64,000 bases of DNA from Octopus vulgaris (taxonomy: Eukaryota). The DNA lies in assembly GCA_951406725.2 (NCBI GenBank), contig OX597830.1, forward strand, positions 42,718,001-42,782,000. Reading direction: 5' to 3'. Below, piece after piece: positions 6,316 through 58,473 of the stretch; within the stretch, counting starts at the first letter, position 1; the number at the start of each line of letters is the position of its first letter. Made by a program: the position numbers and the translations under genes. The notes beneath the pieces are model-generated. The model saw nothing but the letters and a program-made list of their open reading frames with translations, did no database searches and had not been told where the DNA came from.

Positions 6316-7193
6316 ACCGCCAATGGCTGAAAGATGGCTGAAAGATGGGAAGAGATGGGAAGAGATGGGATTACGGCTTGAGGTAGCCTCGCCTAAGGTT
6401 AAATTTTGTAGAGAGAGAGATAGAAAGATAAATCAAGTTATGGCGAAGGCTTGAAAGTAGCCTTAAAAGGTTAAATTTTCGTAACAATGTATGAATAAAC
6501 GTAGTAACAACGAATGGAAATATTAAGATAAATTTTTAAAGAACTTGCTGCGGACATCGATCGGGAGTTGAAATTTAAGAAGTAAGTTAGTTGAATTGGG
6601 AATTTAAATTGTAGAATCGTAATGGTAAGAGGAGGAAAAAAGACCGCCAATGGCTGAAAGATGGCTGAAAGATGGCTGAAAGATGGGAAGAGATGGGAAG
6701 AGATGGGATTACGGCTTGAGGTAGCCTCGCCTAAGGTTAAATTTTGTAGAGAGAGAGATAGAAAGATAAATCAAGTTATGGCGAAGGCTTGAAAGTAGCC
6801 TTAAAAGGTTAAATTTTCGTAACAATGTATGAATAAACGTAGTAACAACGAATGGAAATATTAAGATAAATTTTTAAAGAACTTGCTGCGGACATCGATC
6901 GGGAGTTGAAATTTAAGAAGTAAGTTAGTTGAATTGGGAATTTAAATTGTAGAATCGTAATGGTAAGAGGAGGAAAAAAGACCGCCAATGGCTGAAAGAT
7001 GGCTGAAAGATGGCTGAAAGATGGGAAGAGATGGGAAGAGATGGGATTACGGCTTGAGGTAGCCTCGCCTAAGGTTAAATTTTGTAGAGAGAGAGATAGA
7101 AAGATAAATCAAGTTATGGCGAAGGCTTGAAAGTAGCCTTAAAAGGTTAAATTTTCGTAACAATGTATGAATAAACGTAGTAACAACGAATGG
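6316..7193. repeat. Tandem array, about 2.6 near-identical monomers of 327-338 bp
   Basis: accgccaatggctgaaag... starts at 6316, 6643 and 6981; the length difference is one extra 11-bp atggctgaaag unit. Confidence 0.95.
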
Positions 7194-41044: not shown

Positions 41045-42125
41045 CTGGCAGTGTCAGCTATAGCCTAGTCACCCATATTGTTAACCAGGTGATACTTGAA
41101 GGAGTCATACCCAATGACTGGTGTAGCAGCACCATAGTCAACTGCTACAAAGGTAAAGGTGATGCTTTAGATAGAAATAACTACAGAAGCATCAAGTTGT
41201 TGGATCAGGTAATGAAGGTCACGGAGAGAGTCATAGTCCAACTAATTAAGGAGAGAGTCAGTTGAGATGAGATGCAGTTTGGGTTCATGCCATGGAAAAG
41301 CACCACTGATGCTACACTTCTCGTATGACAGCTGCAGGAGAAATACCTAGCCAAAGATAAATCTCTGTACCTGGCTTTCGTTGACATGGAGAAAGCCTTT
41401 GACAGGGTCCCCCATGACCTTCGAATCTTAGGCCTCACTGAGGCAATGACTAGTGACCGAGATCTTTGGAAATATGCTGTGCTTGAGAAGACCCAGCAAG
41501 CCAAGTGAGACTATAACCTGTGGCCTATGCCAGGGGTGTAACCAGCCCACTTATGCATACCTTTCCTTCATTGGACACTAAACTCTGCTTGCGAAGACCT
41601 GTTGAGGCAAGTGAGATCGAAATCGAAATCAAATTCGATGACAGTACTGCATGACTGGCATCCATACTAATGGAGCGCTAAGAGCACCATCTGAGCGTGA
41701 TCATTGCCCAAGCAGCTGACTGGCTCCCATGCCGGTGGCACATAAAAAGCACCATTCGAGTGTGATCGTTACCAGCATCACCTTGCTGGCATGTGAAAAA
41801 CATTTGAGCGAGGTCATTGCCAGTGCTGCTGGACTGGCTCCTGTGCAGGTAGCATGTAAAAATCACTATTTGAGCGTGGCCATTGCCAGTACCGCCTGAC
41901 TAGCCCTCATGCAAGTGGCACATAAAAGCACCCACTACACTCTCAGAGTGGTTAGTGTTGGGAAGGGCATCCAGCTGTAGAAACTCTGCCAGATCAGATT
42001 GGAGCCTGGTTTGCCTTCTGGTTTGCCTTCTGGTTTGCCTCAGTCAAATCGTCCAACCCATGCTAGCATGGAAAGCAGACGTTAAACGATGATGATGATA
42101 ATGATGATGATGATGATGATGATGA
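41039..42125 (+). mobile_element. RTE-clade LINE, truncated and internally deleted
   Basis: IPNDW.SSTIVNCYKGKGDALDRNNYR.IKLL, MQFGFMP, YLAFVDMEKAFDRVP joined directly to the ORF C-terminus, then 3' UTR and (GAT)n. Confidence 0.9.
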
Positions 42126-43493: not shown

Positions 43494-43544
43494 ATGTATG
43501 TGTGTGTATGTATATACACTTTGATCTATATATACTTTGTATAT

Positions 43545-43843
43545 ACTTTGATCTGTTTTTTATATTGAATACGTATCGCCACCGTGGGCCACTACATCGA
43601 ACACTTTGAACATATAGCATAAATGAACTTACTTCAAACTATATATGAACTTTAAGATGTCTGACTCCGTTGTGAATTGTAAATGAATTTCTTGTGTTTG
43701 ATGGCATGAGCTGTCTTTTTTTATATATAACTTTTTTTGATAAGGTTCATTTCAGGAACCGAAACATGTTATAATGTATATATAAAAATTAAAAATTGTA
43801 TAATATAGCAGCATTTTCGAACTTCATTTTTTACAAATATATA
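43545..43843 (+). repeat. 5' pseudo-LTR of the PLE
   Basis: Direct repeat of 49095-49393. Confidence 0.95.
43716..43790 (+). ncRNA. Minimal type I hammerhead ribozyme motif, U3-A8 core variant
   Basis: TTGATAA (43737-43743), stem II GGTTC/GAACC, GAAA, palindromic stem III ACATGT, GUU triplet; distal stem I tttttatatata/tatatataaaaa. Confidence 0.75.
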
Positions 43844-43860
43844 CCTACTCGTATACGAGC

Positions 43861-44466
43861 TGTAAAGAACTTATTGTTGATATCTTCTCTCTTGTACTTT
43901 CGGGGTACAAGAAAGCAATCACTTTCCGTTGCTTTAATAATCCAGATTCTCTACCAGTCAGAAACAACAAGACGCAGACGTAAAAGATATATATACTACT
44001 TTATTCTCTTTCTTGGTAACAGTAACAATAAGTGGTTATCTGATGTCCTTGGTTCTGGGCGCGCAAGGCTGAAAGTTAATCGATTGTAATATTTACAATG
44101 TTCAGCCGCTAAAAACAGAACGGGTTAAAGATGGCGTCCGGAGGAAGAAGATGGGGTCTGCAACAATTTGGTTAAAGGCCTTTTGGTATGGTGCTGCTAG
44201 AATCAAGTCCGGACGGAGAGAAAATATGCGTGCCCGTCGCCTTCAGTCGCTGCTGTCCCAAGTCGCCGGCCGCCGCCGCCAGCGGTCAAACGCTCCACAA
44301 CCCCCTTGCCTTGGCTAACTACCACGTAGGCAAAAGGGTCGTGCCTCCGGTGGTTCGCGCATGCGCGAGAGGGCCCTTCCCCACCCTCTGCCTTGGCGAA
44401 GGCACCAACACGCGCGAAATAGAAAATGGACGGTGCACGCGCGCGCACCGCCACAGGATCACTACA
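43861..44466 (-). mobile_element. Solo LTR nested in the PLE 5' UTR
   Basis: TGTAAAG...CACTACA; homologous to 39476-40014; flanked by 13-bp ct(c/t)gtatacgagc duplication. Confidence 0.8.
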
Positions 44467-44878
44467 CTTGTATACGAGCTAATCCTATTATAAGTATCAC
44501 ATCACGTACGAGCTCCCGAAAATGCCTGCTAAAAAAGACACCAATGACATCTCCTCAATAAATGAAGAGATACTGAAAGAATTGAAAAGCATAAATTCAA
44601 ACCTAACAGCAGTGTTAAACAAACTCAACCTTAACACCTCGACCTTCTACACAAACTAACGAGGAAACCGAATCGAATAAAACACCCTCTGAAATATTCG
44701 AGAAAGTTGAAAATCTATGCGATACAATGACGACATTCTTCACAAACTTTACGAAACAAGAGCAACAAAAAGAAGGAACACATGAGAAGAACCGAGCAAC
44801 TTCAACATTACAAATAAAGAACCAAGTCCTCCCCAATGGAGAACACTACAGCGAAACAGAAAATTCGCTTTTTGGAAA

Positions 44879-45922
44879 ATGATACAAAATCAGAATAAAG
44901 CAGAGATTTACCAAAAATGGCTAGACTCAACACCCCTAGTCATACCCCCTAAATTACAAATCAAGCCCATCTCGGAAGAACCAGAAGAACAAAGAAAACT
45001 TAGAGAAAAAATGTCATTAGACAAAATGAAGATGGAAATAGAACTACTCAAGCTGAGAGCTAAGACGAATGGAGAAAAAGTAAAAACCATAGACGAGGAA
45101 ATCAACGAAGAAGTCATCAAACTAATAGACGACATCAAAACTGAAACATTACCAGCACTATGGAATGAAGAATGTGAAAAAGAGGAACTTAAGTCCCTCC
45201 AACGATGGGAAAAGAGCGCCATCTGGTTTCTAGATTATGAAACCAACTTCAAAAATGAACACATATCCAACAACCCCTTCATAAAATTAAGTAAATCAAA
45301 ACCAAATACCAACAGAACGGAACAACCACCAAGAAATCCTAACACACTTTACACCAGAAAAGTACACCTAAAACACACCCCACACTACCTACACCAACCC
45401 CAAAACACCTGCAGAGGCCCACCACACCAGTTCGAAAATAGACATACCAACAGAGCAGAACAACCACCAAGAAATCCAAACACACCCTACACCAGAAAAA
45501 TGCATTTAAAACGCACCCCACACTACCTACACCAACCCCAAAACACTTATAGGGTCCGACCACACCATTCCACGAACCTAAGAGCCACAACATACAATAC
45601 TATAAAATACAACCCACATAACCAAACCAAAACGCTACTACCAAACATCCACCCCAGGAACCAACCATACAAACATAACAAACAACAAATGCACTACGGA
45701 GGAAACAACTACCAACACAATATACCTGATGAACTAAGACGGAACACTAGGTACAACAACACACTCCAGAACAGAGCACCACAAACTCACTCTGACAATT
45801 ATAACAACATGAGACAGATAAATAGTAGCTTTGAACATAACTACACCAACCATTTTTTAGACCTTACACACAGGAACAGGGACACACGATGGCAAAGGAC
45901 AAACAAAAGAAACCTCAGGTAA
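44879..45922 (+). CDS. PLE ORF1 (charged helical/coiled-coil-like N half, N/H/P/Q-rich C half); probably began at ATG 44522
   Basis: 347-aa ORF directly upstream of and overlapping the RT ORF, with the same A/C-rich strand bias; upstream coding-like segments 44522-44659 and 44619-44882 in shifted frames. Confidence 0.8.
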   Translation: MIQNQNKAEIYQKWLDSTPLVIPPKLQIKPISEEPEEQRKLREKMSLDKMKMEIELLKLRAKTNGEKVKTIDEEINEEVIKLIDDIKTETLPALWNEECEKEELKSLQRWEKSAIWFLDYETNFKNEHISNNPFIKLSKSKPNTNRTEQPPRNPNTLYTRKVHLKHTPHYLHQPQNTCRGPPHQFENRHTNRAEQPPRNPNTPYTRKMHLKRTPHYLHQPQNTYRVRPHHSTNLRATTYNTIKYNPHNQTKTLLPNIHPRNQPYKHNKQQMHYGGNNYQHNIPDELRRNTRYNNTLQNRAPQTHSDNYNNMRQINSSFEHNYTNHFLDLTHRNRDTRWQRTNKRNLR

Positions 45923-48186
45923 TTAAGATAATCAATCTCTCAAACAAAGAACTTACACCTAACGAAATAAGCATACTCTCCAAAGGACTTAAATTTACAC
46001 CTACCCCACAACGTTCTAATTACTATGAAATGAAAGATGATATTTCGGAATTTTGCAGAAAACTAAGACTCACCGAGGCATTTCAAGACAAAAAAATAGA
46101 GGAGGACCCAATAGCTAGAAACAAGAGCAATTACACCCCCACCAAGGGAAAGAATAAAGCCTTAGACCGCTATTGTGACTACATAACTAATTTCCCGTTT
46201 CAATTCATCAAGAAACAAAAACACAGCCCTAACTTCAACAAAAGAGAATGGAACGACCTCATCAAACTAAGAGAAGACAAAACAATAACAATTAAGGAGG
46301 CAGATAAGGGCAACGCGATAGTAATAATGAATACAAACGATTATAAAAATTTAGTGCTATCCCTATTAAGAGATGAAACGTATTATGAAAGGGCCCAACA
46401 GTATAATCAGCAAAAAATAATGCATAACCTTAGGACATTAATCAACACATACCAAGAAGGACTCACGAACAAGGAGTATGAATACATCACTAACTTCAAA
46501 TGCAAATCGAGTTTGTTCTATGGTATCCCTAAGGTACACAAAAGCCAAATAATTAGAGAAACGTGCAAAACATCCACCGACACACTCATCAAAATCCCTT
46601 CACCAAATGATCTTAAACTAAGACCGATAATAGCAGGGCCAGCATGTGAAACTCACCGCCTCAGCAATTTCTTAGACACACTTCTTAAACCTTTCCTAAA
46701 ACACATTAAAAGCTACGTAAGAGACGATATAGATATGCTCAACCACCTCCCTAAAAGAGTCAATGAGAAAACCCTTCTAGTATCATTCGACGTAGTTAAT
46801 CTTTATTCTAACATCCCTCACAACCTAGGAATAGAAGCGATCACCTTCTGGCTGAATAACTACCCCTTTGAACTCCCAACTCACATAAACAAAGACCTTA
46901 TAATAGAAGGACTTAGATTCATTTTAGAGAACAATTATTTTATTTTTGACAATGATTTCTACAGACAAAGATCGGGAACAGCGATGGGCACGCATACTGC
47001 ACCATCTTTTGCCAACCTAGTGATGGGATACCTCGAGAAAATACTATACCGGATAACACTCGAGAAATATGGAAACACCTTCGCCACCTATATCCATAAC
47101 AACTGGAAAAGATACCTCGATGACTGTTTCATCATCTGGGACAAAGGTATAGAGAAACTTGAGGAATTTAAAATACTATTAAATGGAATAAATGACAATA
47201 TACAATTCACGATGGACCACAACGAAAAAGAATTACCATTTTTAGACATCCTCATTAAGAAAACCGGCAACAAAATAGAGACAGATATCTACTATAAACC
47301 GACAGACTCTAAACAGTACCTACCCTTTGATTCATGCCACCCACGACACACTAGAATGAATGTCCCTTTTTGTTTAGCTAGAAGGATTTGCACCATAATA
47401 TCAGACACAAACACCCGACACACACGTCTCCAGGAACTTAGAACCACACTCACAAATAGAAACTATCCACAGCCCCTAATAGACAGTGCAATCCAACGGG
47501 TACTTAAATTAAATATAGAAGACCTGAGACAAACAAAACCAAAAAAGAAAGAACAATTAAAAACCCTTCCCTACATCTCTACACACAACCCACTCAACAA
47601 TGAGGCCTTCAACACCATACTACAAAGCACAGCCCTACTAAAGGGAGACCCAAAGATGAACCGGATCCTCGAAACATACACCATCATTAAAAGTAAACGG
47701 CAACCAAAATCCTTGAAAAGGATTTTAACCCAAGCTACACTGCACTCAACATCAACCACAAAACCAGCAGTTAGAAAATGTGGAAGGCCCAACTGCGGAA
47801 TCTGTGTCATCTTGAAAGAAGGATCAGAATTTATACTGGAACAAGGCCACCAGTTCACCATTAGAACAAACTTCACCTGCGCATCAGAAAACTTAATTTA
47901 CGTCATAACATGCGCAGGCTGCAATAGGCAGTATATAGGCCATACAAAAAATAGCTTACGTAACAGGATGGGGGTGCATAAATCACAAATTAGAAACCCT
48001 GATTACCGCAAAATACCGGTCAGCGGACACATAGATAGATGTGCTGGAAATGTAAATCCGAAATTTACAACTAACCCGCTCTATAAATTCAGTGACAACG
48101 CAACCTTCACACAACGCCAAAATAAAGAACTGTATTTCATAAAAAAATTTAGACCAAGTTTAAACACCCTGGGCCAGGAATATTAA
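45889..48186 (+). CDS. Penelope-like reverse transcriptase + GIY-YIG endonuclease
   Basis: INLS..L...GLKF.PTP, ADKG, SFDVVNLYSNI, QRSGTAMG, RYLDDCF, LPFLD; Cys linker CGRPNCGIC; NLIY..TC..C...YIG.T....R...H; terminal E..FI.....LN; uninterrupted 765 aa. Confidence 0.97.
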   Translation: MAKDKQKKPQVIKIINLSNKELTPNEISILSKGLKFTPTPQRSNYYEMKDDISEFCRKLRLTEAFQDKKIEEDPIARNKSNYTPTKGKNKALDRYCDYITNFPFQFIKKQKHSPNFNKREWNDLIKLREDKTITIKEADKGNAIVIMNTNDYKNLVLSLLRDETYYERAQQYNQQKIMHNLRTLINTYQEGLTNKEYEYITNFKCKSSLFYGIPKVHKSQIIRETCKTSTDTLIKIPSPNDLKLRPIIAGPACETHRLSNFLDTLLKPFLKHIKSYVRDDIDMLNHLPKRVNEKTLLVSFDVVNLYSNIPHNLGIEAITFWLNNYPFELPTHINKDLIIEGLRFILENNYFIFDNDFYRQRSGTAMGTHTAPSFANLVMGYLEKILYRITLEKYGNTFATYIHNNWKRYLDDCFIIWDKGIEKLEEFKILLNGINDNIQFTMDHNEKELPFLDILIKKTGNKIETDIYYKPTDSKQYLPFDSCHPRHTRMNVPFCLARRICTIISDTNTRHTRLQELRTTLTNRNYPQPLIDSAIQRVLKLNIEDLRQTKPKKKEQLKTLPYISTHNPLNNEAFNTILQSTALLKGDPKMNRILETYTIIKSKRQPKSLKRILTQATLHSTSTTKPAVRKCGRPNCGICVILKEGSEFILEQGHQFTIRTNFTCASENLIYVITCAGCNRQYIGHTKNSLRNRMGVHKSQIRNPDYRKIPVSGHIDRCAGNVNPKFTTNPLYKFSDNATFTQRQNKELYFIKKFRPSLNTLGQEY

Positions 48187-48359
48187 AACAAAAGATAAGT
48201 CCTCCGAAAAGGAGAAGCAAAATTCCACCACGGCCGCTACCTTAAATAGTCACTCGCACTGACGGAAATATGCCTTAGTAAAAAAGGGAAAAAAATTTTT
48301 GTGTGCAAATCTGACCCTGATGGACTGACCACATACGATACAGCTAAGGGTCAGACCCG

Positions 48360-49040
48360 ATTCTGATTGGTCAACATGTTGATGACGTCTAGTTCTGCTA
48401 GAATGGACAGGATACAAACAGGGGGCAGAGATTAGTCAGAATATTGATGACGTCCTTTTCTACTTGACTAGTCACCTAACAAGAAACAGACAGGGGGCAG
48501 ATCTAATGCAGCTATAAGTCGTGATTGGGCAGAATCTTGATGACGTCCCGTTCTGCCTGACTAAGCCACCTAACGAAACGACTGGTCAAACAGGATACAG
48601 ACAAGAGGCAGTTATAATACAGCGATAGGTCACGATTGGTCAGAATGTTGATGACATCCAGTTCTGCTTGACTAAGCCACCTAACGAAAAGGGGCAGATC
48701 TAATACAGCTATAAGTCGTGATTGGTCAGAATCTTGATGACGTCCCGTTCTGCTTGACTAAGCCACCTAACGAAACGACTGGTCAAACAGGATACAGACA
48801 AGAGGCAGTTATAATACAGCGATAGGCCACGATTGGTCAGAATGTTGATGACGTCCCGTTCAGCTTGACTAAAGCCACCTAACGAAACGATTGGTCAAAA
48901 CGTTGATGACGTCACGCTACGCTGGATTGACCACCTAACAGGCATTATAAAACCCGAACATTTCACAAGACTCACCAGAATTCACCAGAATCACCCAGCG
49001 AACACCCACCATGGGTCATCACAATTGCTCAAGGTAAAAA
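48360..49040 (+). promoter_or_regulatory. Putative internal Pol II promoter in the PLE 3' region: 7x (ATTGG + TGACGTC) array, TATA box, mini-exon and splice donor
   Basis: Seven gattggtca..tgatgacgtc-type units (perfect TGACGTCA at 48907), TATAAAA at 48946, caccATGG at 49011, AAG|GTAAAA at 49033/49034. Confidence 0.65.
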
Positions 49041-49094
49041 TGAATTCCTCGCTCTTTCGGGAACATCAATCTTCTGTATTGACTGCTTTCCACC

Positions 49095-49382
49095 ACTTTG
49101 ATCTGTTTTTTATATTGAATACGTATCGCCACCGTGGGCCACTACATCGAACACTTTGAACAGATAGCATAAATGAACTTACTTCAAACTATATATGAAC
49201 TTTAAGATGTCTGACTCCGTTGTGAATTGTAAATGAATTTCTTGTGTTTGACGGCATGAGCTGTCTTTTTTTATATATAACTTTTTTTGATAAGGTTCAT
49301 TTCAGGAACCGAAACATGTTATAATGTATATATAAAAATTAAAAATTGTATAATATAGCAGCATTTTCGAACTTCATTTTTT

Positions 49383-49393
<11 letters not shown>
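49095..49393 (+). repeat. 3' pseudo-LTR of the PLE
   Basis: Direct repeat of 43545-43843, runs into (TA)n. Confidence 0.95.
49266..49340 (+). ncRNA. Second copy of the U3-A8 hammerhead motif
   Basis: Identical to 43716-43790. Confidence 0.75.
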
Positions 49394-49417
<24 letters not shown>

Positions 49418-49724
49418 TATATGTAAATATATATATTATACACACATATACATATCTCATATCTCATCTCATCCACACCTTCCTCAAACACACATACACA
49501 GACACACACAACCTACACTACTATACTTCTGCACTTGCTGACTTATAAACACTTACCGAAAATGTCACACATGCCACTCCCTCTCATATATTTGTCTCTA
49601 AAAACGGATTCACTCTGATACTTGTAAATATGCACCCACCTCTCCTCTCTTCCCATTCCCACCTGACCTCTTGTCCCCCCCCCCCGCTCTCACTGAATTT
49701 TCCTCTTCCCCAGTCCCTATGCTT

Positions 49725-57404: not shown

Positions 57405-58473
57405 AGTAGTCTCTTGCTCAGAGCAAAAGGTAGATTGTATGATGCATGTGTACGAACAGCCATGCTACATGGCAGTGAAACATGGGCCGTGACTACTGAG
57501 GACATGCATAAGCTTGCAAGGAATGAAGCCAGTATGCTCCTCTGGATGTGTAATGTCAGTGTGCATACTCGACAGAGTGTTAGTACCTTGAGAGAAAGCT
57601 GGACCTAAGGAGCATTAGATGTGGTGTGCAAGAGAGATGATTGTGCTGGTATGGTCATGTGGTGAGAATGGATGAGGATAGCTGTGTGAAAAAGTGTCAC
57701 ACCCTAGCAGTTGAGGGAACCTGAGGAAGAGGTAGACCCAGGAAGACCTGAGATGAGGTGGTGAAGCATGACTTTCAAATATTAGGCCTCACCGAGGCAA
57801 TGACCAGTGACCGAGACCATTGGAAATATGCTGTGCTTGAGAAGACCCAGCAAACCAAGTGAGACCATAACCTGTGGCCTATGCCAGTGGTGTAACCAGC
57901 CCACTTATGCATACCGTTCCTTCATTGGACACTAAACTCTGCTTGCGAAGACCTGCTGAGGCAAGTGAGATTGAAATCGAAATCAAATTCGATGACAGCA
58001 CCGCATGACTGGCATACATGCTAGTGGAGCGCTAAGAGCATCATCTGAGTGTGATCGTTGCCAGGGCAGCTGACTGGCTCCTGTGCCAGTGGCATGTAAA
58101 AAGCACCATTCGAGCATGATCATTACCAGCATTGTCTTACTGGCACTTGTGCCAGTGGCACGTGAAAAACAATATTCAAGCGAGGTCATTGCCAGTGCTG
58201 CTAGACTAGCTCCTATGCAGGTGGCACGTAAAAAACACTGTTTAAGTGTGGCCATTGCCAGTACCGCCTGACTGGCCTTCATGCCGGTGGAACGTAAAAG
58301 CACCCACTACACTCTCAGCGTGGTTGGCATTAAGAAGGGCATCCAGCAGTAGAAAATCTGCCAGATCAGATTGGAGCTTGGTGCAGCCATCTGGCTCACC
58401 AGTCCTCAGTCAAACCATCCAACCCATGCTAGCATGGAAAGTGGATGTTAAACAATGATGATGATGATGATGA
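57405..58473 (+). mobile_element. RTE LINE 3' end
   Basis: LRAKGRLYDACVRTAMLHGSETW...WYGHVVRM...RGRPRKT; full 3' UTR and (GAT)n. Confidence 0.9.

Follow-up and report, generated by a model that had tools for sequence, protein, structure and literature searches.

A Penelope-like element (PLE) with a GIY-YIG endonuclease occupies positions 43545-49393 of a 64,000-nt stretch of Octopus vulgaris DNA (assembly GCA_951406725.2, contig OX597830.1, positions 42,718,001 to 42,782,000 of the forward strand), hereafter termed the window, from whose first letter all positions are counted. Between direct repeats at both ends—a 299-nt 5' pseudo-long terminal repeat (pLTR) at 43545..43843, just after a TA-rich microsatellite, and a 3' pLTR at 49095..49393—it carries an upstream open reading frame, ORF1 (44522..45922), and a reverse transcriptase-endonuclease (RT-EN) frame (45841..48186; 781 codons from stop to stop). 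Features lie on the plus strand unless stated otherwise. Judging by the conservation of the junction between the two frames, RT-EN is probably made as a fusion to ORF1 by programmed -1 ribosomal frameshifting at U UUU UUA. Sequence comparison indicates that the two-ORF layout is a trait of the family and not a product of decay, and such a -1 layout with a predicted helical ORF1 may be new for a GIY-YIG, linker-bearing PLE family.

A conserved slippery heptamer in the ORF1-RT overlap

The two frames overlap by 82 nt (45841-45922) in the -1 relation. Within this overlap, and in the phase of ORF1, lies the heptamer T TTT TTA (45853..45859), a sequence of the X XXY YYZ type in phase inside a conserved -1 overlap, bearing out the retrovirus-like slip site of the original prediction. 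Searching the host genome with the ORF1-RT stretch yielded 754 candidates, of which 40 were scored and 30 loci examined, the window copy included. Of the 29 other copies, 26 retain the heptamer unaltered, and 27 keep the -1 relation with no indel across 101 nt of the junction.

A search with an ORF1 homologue returned a further 30 host loci, comprising two more families (23 and 6 loci; RT 57-61% identical to that of the window family) and one decayed locus outside both. In the second family, whose RT is ~60% identical, the heptamer is in phase at 17/23 loci, with stops or short deletions at the remaining ones. All six loci of the third family carry it in phase, with no ATG between the heptamer and the RT motifs, and so does the decayed locus. 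Between the three families, the proportion of synonymous differences (pS) is 0.66-0.83, near saturation, as opposed to a proportion of nonsynonymous differences (pN) of 0.25-0.33 for the ORF1 core and RT together (0.31-0.33 for the ORF1 core), which suggests that both are under purifying selection. With synonymous sites near saturation, retention of the exact heptamer is therefore not a matter of simple inheritance.

The pattern extends to metagenomic relatives. Eight of 80 metagenome loci are close relatives that include the N-terminus of RT together with 500 nt or more of upstream sequence; an in-phase TTTTTTA is present in six and TTTTTTG in one, another is decayed, and seven have no in-frame ATG. 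Their upstream -1 frames measure 466, 408, 380, at least 195, at least 179, 129, 35 and 5 codons, and homology to ORF1 was detected in three by hidden Markov model (E 1e-47 or better). In a control over 11 loci, four of them picked for a long upstream ORF, an in-phase TTTTTTA occurred 9 times in 224 overlap codons versus once in 8326 same-phase positions elsewhere. Finally, one RNA-like contig spans the ORF1-RT junction without a gap; contigs of this kind came from four runs, their RNA label is presumed, and they are assembled contigs rather than raw reads.

Programmed -1 frameshifting is thus likely because the heptamer is conserved and an ATG is absent from one family and from seven of eight close relatives. 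The gag-pol-like expression strategy proposed earlier is accordingly well supported by conservation, with heptamer and frame relation shared by copies and by divergent families; an in-frame AUG is missing from several of the latter. U UUU UUA is the heptamer of HIV-1-type gag-pol, and the two systems also have in common its phase, the usual following G and a structural ORF ahead of the enzyme. The octopus family differs in that no stem-loop follows the site, and in lacking a capsid fold, a protease, an integrase and true long terminal repeats (LTRs).

Alternative readings of the junction

Several observations weigh against frameshifting. The RT frame has an in-frame ATG of its own (45889..45891), in good context in 29/29 copies, 30-36 nt past the heptamer there and in the second family. 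No fold was shared by the 70 nt following 16 sites (window z=+0.9); folds at z -2 or lower follow two of the 16 (L083, -3.2; L111, -2.0), and one candidate pseudoknot outperformed 99% of shuffles. This search covered a 70-nt window and simple H-type pseudoknots, leaving long-range or protein stimulators outside its scope. In two of three host copies with unusually long frames, different private indels join ORF1 and RT into one frame. Contigs of the four runs showed no splice into ORF1, and one contig spans the pLTR-ORF1 junction unspliced.

The rival start at 45889 invites the reading that RT-EN is translated alone from its own AUG—by reinitiation, by internal initiation or from a shorter RNA—with the heptamer a relic or a by-product of encoding Phe-Leu. 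Such a start resembles that of ORF2 in long interspersed nuclear elements (LINEs). Besides the placement of the ATG and the missing stimulator, the ORF1 homologues P0122 and P0123 speak for it, as they end on a D-T-R-W motif; read in the -1 frame, the codons for its R-W residues can yield ATG. Yet neither the third host family (6/6 loci) nor seven of the eight close relatives offer an in-frame ATG, and the exact T TTT TTA is kept despite near-saturated synonymous sites; we consider this reading unlikely, although own-AUG translation and frameshifting could both occur in the window family. A change of frame at the RNA level, by polymerase slippage adding a base on the T6 run or by a small intron joining the frames, would account for the T6 run as the conserved feature. 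It would not account for the phase of the run and the following A, which are conserved too, nor for a distant relative whose T TTA AAC is among the classic ribosomal heptamers and includes no long run of T. As contigs of the four runs, which drop rare variants, showed no gap or GT-AG joint at the junction either, RNA-level change seems quite improbable.

Decay or misassembly of a truly single-ORF family is harder still to believe. The two ORF1 indels of the window copy (see below), the frequency of homopolymer indels in these loci and the two copies with a fused frame all point that way, but the junction is alike in three host families and in unrelated metagenomic contigs, which largely refutes it. 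Moreover, the best 120 database homologues of RT-EN measure 612-803 aa, corresponding to RT-EN alone, and the database search returned no ORF1-containing protein of 696-2000 aa, though this is weak evidence. Programmed frameshifting therefore remains the preferred reading of the junction.

ORF1 is whole in sister copies and broken in the window copy

The original prediction described a two-ORF element. This holds for the family, but not for the window copy itself, whose ORF1 is in three pieces: from the ATG at 44522 it runs for only 45 codons to a stop at 44657-44659. One extra base near 44630 is missing from 24/24 covering copies. Near 44834 the window has one base fewer; a base occupies that position in 25/29 other copies and is shifted by 3-4 nt in two further ones. 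The remaining two copies, L002 and L014, have the same state as the window. This common missing base raises the possibility that a lineage lacking an intact ORF1 was copied in trans. An unbroken ORF1 of 466 aa is present in 8 of the 18 other copies that carry the start motif. A consensus of one continuous ORF, named in the original prediction as the outcome that would speak against it, was not found at family level, where sister copies keep two frames.

The predicted structure of ORF1 comprises five or six long helices over ~250 N-terminal residues (pLDDT 76), followed by a disordered C-terminal tail in which N, R, T, P and H abound. Within the tail, a 138-nt tandem duplication (45306-45567; a 46-aa repeat) is found in the window and in sister copies. 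ORF1 has at least four database homologues. No meaningful match was obtained in Pfam or in the ESM Atlas (best 0.76), and Foldseek against the PDB gave nothing at E <= 0.001; VIA-align returned only generic helical bundles (best Z 8.8), which does not imply a new fold. ORF1 is predicted to be a helical protein that oligomerises and binds RNA, and constitutes a helical ORF1 not named before. It resembles the coiled-coil ORF1 of Athena and Coprina as judged from the long-helix model (pLDDT 76) rather than from a coiled-coil predictor.

RT-EN is of the Neptune/Nematis type by its motifs

The RT-EN frame matches Pfam RVT_1 and GIY-YIG, with the endonuclease (EN) at residues 685-772 of 781, and no relative of solved structure was found by sequence. 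The C-x4-C-x2-C linker ahead of the GIY-YIG domain (47779..47805), a Neptune/Nematis-type motif, is kept in an alignment of 28 sequences, in which the CCHH residues of the EN can also be read by eye. A 25-aa insert separates RT motifs 1 and 2; compared by eye with the accessible part of the PMC8557442 supplement, it exceeds that of the Neptune rows in length and is nearer to the Nematis rows. Seven close RT-EN homologues (P0027, P0037, P0063, P0065, P0078, P0093 and P0104) appear in public databases under the names of bacterial symbionts, and probably represent host contamination.

The family shares with EN-bearing (EN+) PLEs a C-terminal GIY-YIG after the RT, pLTRs, partial tandems and a tail, and specifically with Neptune the CX2-5CxxC linker, the CCHH residues and the (TA)n bias. 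It has neither the N-terminal GIY-YIG of Naiad, its EN being C-terminal, nor the EN-less architecture and telomere attachment of Athena and Coprina. On these motifs we class it as a Neptune/Nematis-type EN+ PLE, 'Neptune' being a motif-level label only. Where it departs from EN+ PLEs is in the single ORF with which they are worded in the accessible text of PMC8557442, PMC11167929 and PMC6515669.

Craig et al. 2021 (PMC8557442), in the portions available, describe canonical EN+ PLEs as single-ORF. The Neptune and Nematis clades are in other respects much like the window family: RT with C-terminal GIY-YIG, CX2-5CxxC linker, CCHH, pLTRs, partial tandems, a 30-40-nt tail, (TA)n bias and a hammerhead ribozyme (HHR) in the pLTR. 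The difference lies in the 450-470-aa ORF1 that here overlaps RT in -1. According to the legend to Fig. 1 of the same paper, a frameshift with a pseudoknot can set ORF1 apart; the clade is unstated in the accessible text, and the legend may already cover Neptune. An upstream coiled-coil or disordered ORF1 with a frameshift noted, as here, is described in the available text on Athena/Terminon and two-ORF Coprina (PMC8557442, PMC6431247, PMC13159263), the last of these papers reporting two ORFs in Athena and one Coprina. Those elements, however, are EN-less and telomere-attached, whereas the window family has a GIY-YIG domain, is interspersed in (TA)n and gave no pseudoknot. Extra coding capacity is also known from Neptune-like PLEs of fish and molluscs that bear esterases (PMC5408684; Rodriguez et al. 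2017); the accessible esterase passage is silent on a frameshift, and the helical ORF1 of the window family has no esterase motif.

A literature search, with most subscription papers, Repbase/Dfam and figures outside its scope, turned up no account of -1 frameshifting in Neptune-type elements. Nor did the accessible text of PMC3846280, PMC6431247, PMC5718144, PMC6515669, PMC13282606 and the retrozyme preprint 10.64898/2026.07.22.740005 mention a frameshift in an EN+ PLE; absence from print is not thereby established. Already known from the accessible literature are an ORF1 with frameshift, drawn for some PLEs, as well as the hammerhead variant, the tail, the 5' intron and the (TA)n bias.

If RT-EN is indeed a frameshift product, consensus models and in vitro work restricted to RT-EN of linker-bearing PLEs would leave out one third of what the elements can encode, along with the enzyme's true N-terminus. 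The junction would also offer a concrete case of recoding, open to testing, among the retroelements nearest to telomerase, with slippage that seemingly needs none of the usual RNA structure.

Upstream -1 frames among PLE relatives

In a quickly built tree of 92 RT rows (five loci left out for short matches; no named references), an upstream -1 ORF occurs in three groups; the tree gives neither the root nor the order of these changes. The first is the linker-bearing group of the window. The second (support 99) consists of L111 (1926-3845), L119 (1337-3655), L159 (446-2971) and L108; three of the four have the linker, and their ORF1 of 640-840 aa ends in an SGNH-esterase-like domain, comparable to the esterases of the Neptune-like PLEs mentioned above, and overlaps RT in -1 at TTTTTTA or TTTAAAC. 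The best PDB match of this domain, 4c1b ('ORF1-encoded protein'), is weak (E 0.04). The third group is EN-less, with overlaps of ~200 codons in 7/10 rows. Seven of its loci (L120, L130, L141, L149, L156, L157 and L158) hold PLE-like RTs with no detected endonuclease and a long upstream ORF, and A AAA AAC/T occurs near the overlap start in an A-rich background. A linker-less group of 45 rows is without the two-ORF layout: an upstream -1 frame of at least 120 codons is present in two, neither with a heptamer.

A wider reading, which we raise tentatively and hold to be somewhat doubtful, is that a large EN+ PLE branch consists of gag-pol-like two-gene elements with an ancient U UUU UUA, no downstream structure and swapped, unrelated ORF1 modules (helical in the window family, an esterase in a distant group), taken for single-ORF because only the RT-EN frame was annotated. 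Were this true, ORF1 and frameshift would be ancestral or recurrent in PLEs, with single-ORF Penelope and Poseidon the exception, and the real retrotransposition enzyme would be a fusion of about 1200 aa.

Insertion into (TA)n and hammerhead-like motifs

Targeting of (TA)n, as proposed in the original prediction, was confirmed at the 3' ends: 30/30 abut (TA)n, 23 directly and seven after a ~33-nt tail, against a window background of ~1%. In the window, the target microsatellite lies at 49387..49455 (no strand assigned). Eight of 11 examined 5' ends are TA-rich as well, which favours target choice over a synthesised tail. Just before the 5' end of the window copy, at 43517-43555, two short partial copies of the first bases of the pLTR stand with TA repeats between them, which suggests repeated annealing during 5' joining.

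Each pLTR contains one hammerhead-like motif. It combines a U3-A8 core and GAAA with a helix II of 5 bp and a palindromic helix III, as in a minimal type I core with its 3-8 pair. The 5' motif lies at 43737..43775, with a predicted cut after 43770; the 3' motif starts at 49287, with a predicted cut after 49320. No such pattern occurs on the minus strand, and Rfam at E up to 5 gave no hammerhead among nine matches (eight microRNA models on microsatellites and a weak snoRNA in the LTR). Near 44041, within the solo LTR described below, a further stretch resembling a hammerhead failed the core pattern. All three host families have U3-A8, while L081, L082 and L084 have the canonical C3-G8 in a common architecture, and the motif is therefore conserved with covariation. 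In 44/49 motif copies of the family, G.U replaces G10.1-C11.1; the window copy has G-C. Published minimal hammerheads have in common with ours the U3-A8 covariation, palindromic helix III, short helix I and one motif per pLTR; the window family differs by the prevailing G.U at 10.1-11.1, a helix I of A/U only and a GUU cut triplet. Of the variant hammerheads claimed earlier, the U3-A8 motif in each pLTR therefore stands, although without an Rfam match and with the core variant, like the low activity of minimal HHRs, already published in the accessible text of PMC4209133.

Insertions end ~65-100 nt 3' of the predicted hammerhead cut, which argues that the template is not a linear RNA cut there; it is possibly an uncut or circular RNA. 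In the portion of PMC11167929 available, HHR cleavage was dispensable for insertion of an Anolis Poseidon element in vitro. With ends beyond the cut and G.U in 44/49 motifs, the earlier proposal that ribozymes release unit-length RNA finds no support.

A 3' promoter-like module with a splice donor

Downstream of RT-EN, the element contains tandem repeats (48366..48912) with six TGACGT and six ATTGG, enhancer-like by inferred function, followed at 48946..49033 by a TATA-like box (TATAAAA, 48946) and a putative mini-exon with a Kozak ATG (49011), and by the 5' splice donor AAG|GTAAAA (49033|49034). The donor is present in 25/25 copies matching the pattern, 22 of them with the Kozak ATG. One RNA-like contig, from one of the four runs, departs from another copy of the element exactly at this donor. 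Its continuation maps to two genome sites, each behind a polypyrimidine tract and AG; one of them has a family 3' fragment with mini-exon ~1.1 kb upstream (G000:C9:60905994-60907583; L192, L198). The contig is a GT-AG splice from the donor of the element into host DNA, seen once, in one run. The acceptor region is also duplicated in inverted orientation 54 kb away, with no mini-exon nearby. The enhancer/TATA/mini-exon cassette of the original prediction is thus present as motifs, with donor use in that single spliced contig, and would offer truncated copies a route to start spliced transcripts in host DNA. In the other two families, a motif scan covering 12 loci yielded no clear match to the module, though most of these loci may exclude the upstream 3' UTR.

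The window copy has no promoter module ahead of its own ORF1, and promoter activity of the 3' module is suggested by its motifs. In the accessible text of PMC8557442, D. virilis Penelope and Chlamys-3_cRei have a 5' intron and a pLTR promoter, with transcription starting upstream of an intron that spans the pLTR/body boundary, as proposed here. In the window family, by contrast, it is the 3' UTR, ahead of the pLTR of the copy, that holds the TATA box and the enhancer-like repeats, with a Kozak ATG in the mini-exon. In a partial tandem, the 3' promoter of the upstream unit could drive transcription of the unit behind it, and an intron, used optionally, would span the pLTR and hammerhead. Most ribosomes would stop at ORF1 alone and a minority slip to yield ORF1-RT-EN; reverse transcription would be primed at a (TA)n nick, on RNA downstream of the hammerhead.

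A foreign solo LTR within the window copy

Between the pLTR 'tail'/5' leader start (43844..43860) and ORF1 lies a 606-bp TG...CA stretch (43861..44466, minus strand, as deduced from the primer-binding-site (PBS)-like motif of paired copies). By sequence, we identify this stretch as a solo LTR from a high-copy, non-PLE family unrelated to the element, contrary to its earlier reading as part of the element: in 19/19 other copies covering the junction, the pLTR tail continues directly into the ORF1 leader. The LTR sequence has 816 genome candidates at ~88-92% identity, often paired ~2.15 kb apart, and none of 19 other loci adjoins a PLE body. Target duplications of 4 bp flank 10 of the 15 loci with both ends readable, the other five being mostly ends of paired elements. 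In the window, we found instead a 13-nt near-duplication (43848-43860 repeated at 44467-44479 with one mismatch, around a palindrome). Paired copies (L032-L050 loci) enclose ~1.55 kb with PBS-like and polypurine-tract-like motifs, and the internal region of one of them, L040, has no ORF over 143 codons, suggesting a probably non-autonomous LTR element. The PBS-like motif resembles a tRNA primer.

Because of this insert, the 5550-nt period of the window element differs from the unit length of the family. The earlier description of a young, intact copy applies to the pLTRs, which differ at 2/299 nt (43545-43843 versus 49095-49393) exactly as claimed, and to the open RT-EN frame, but not to the broken ORF1 or the body interrupted by a foreign LTR. 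The copy appears young but probably non-functional, as its ORF1 stops after 45 codons.

Elsewhere in the window, a perfect tandem array occupies 6323-7193 (338-bp unit, 2.6 copies, 100% identity). A dispersed repeat resembling short interspersed nuclear elements or LINEs, with a (GAT)n end, has nine window copies, at 1458, 2128, 10368, 15413, 25134, 36452, 42043, 56781 and 58409, with the stretches 41413-41712 and 57767-58066 listed alongside.

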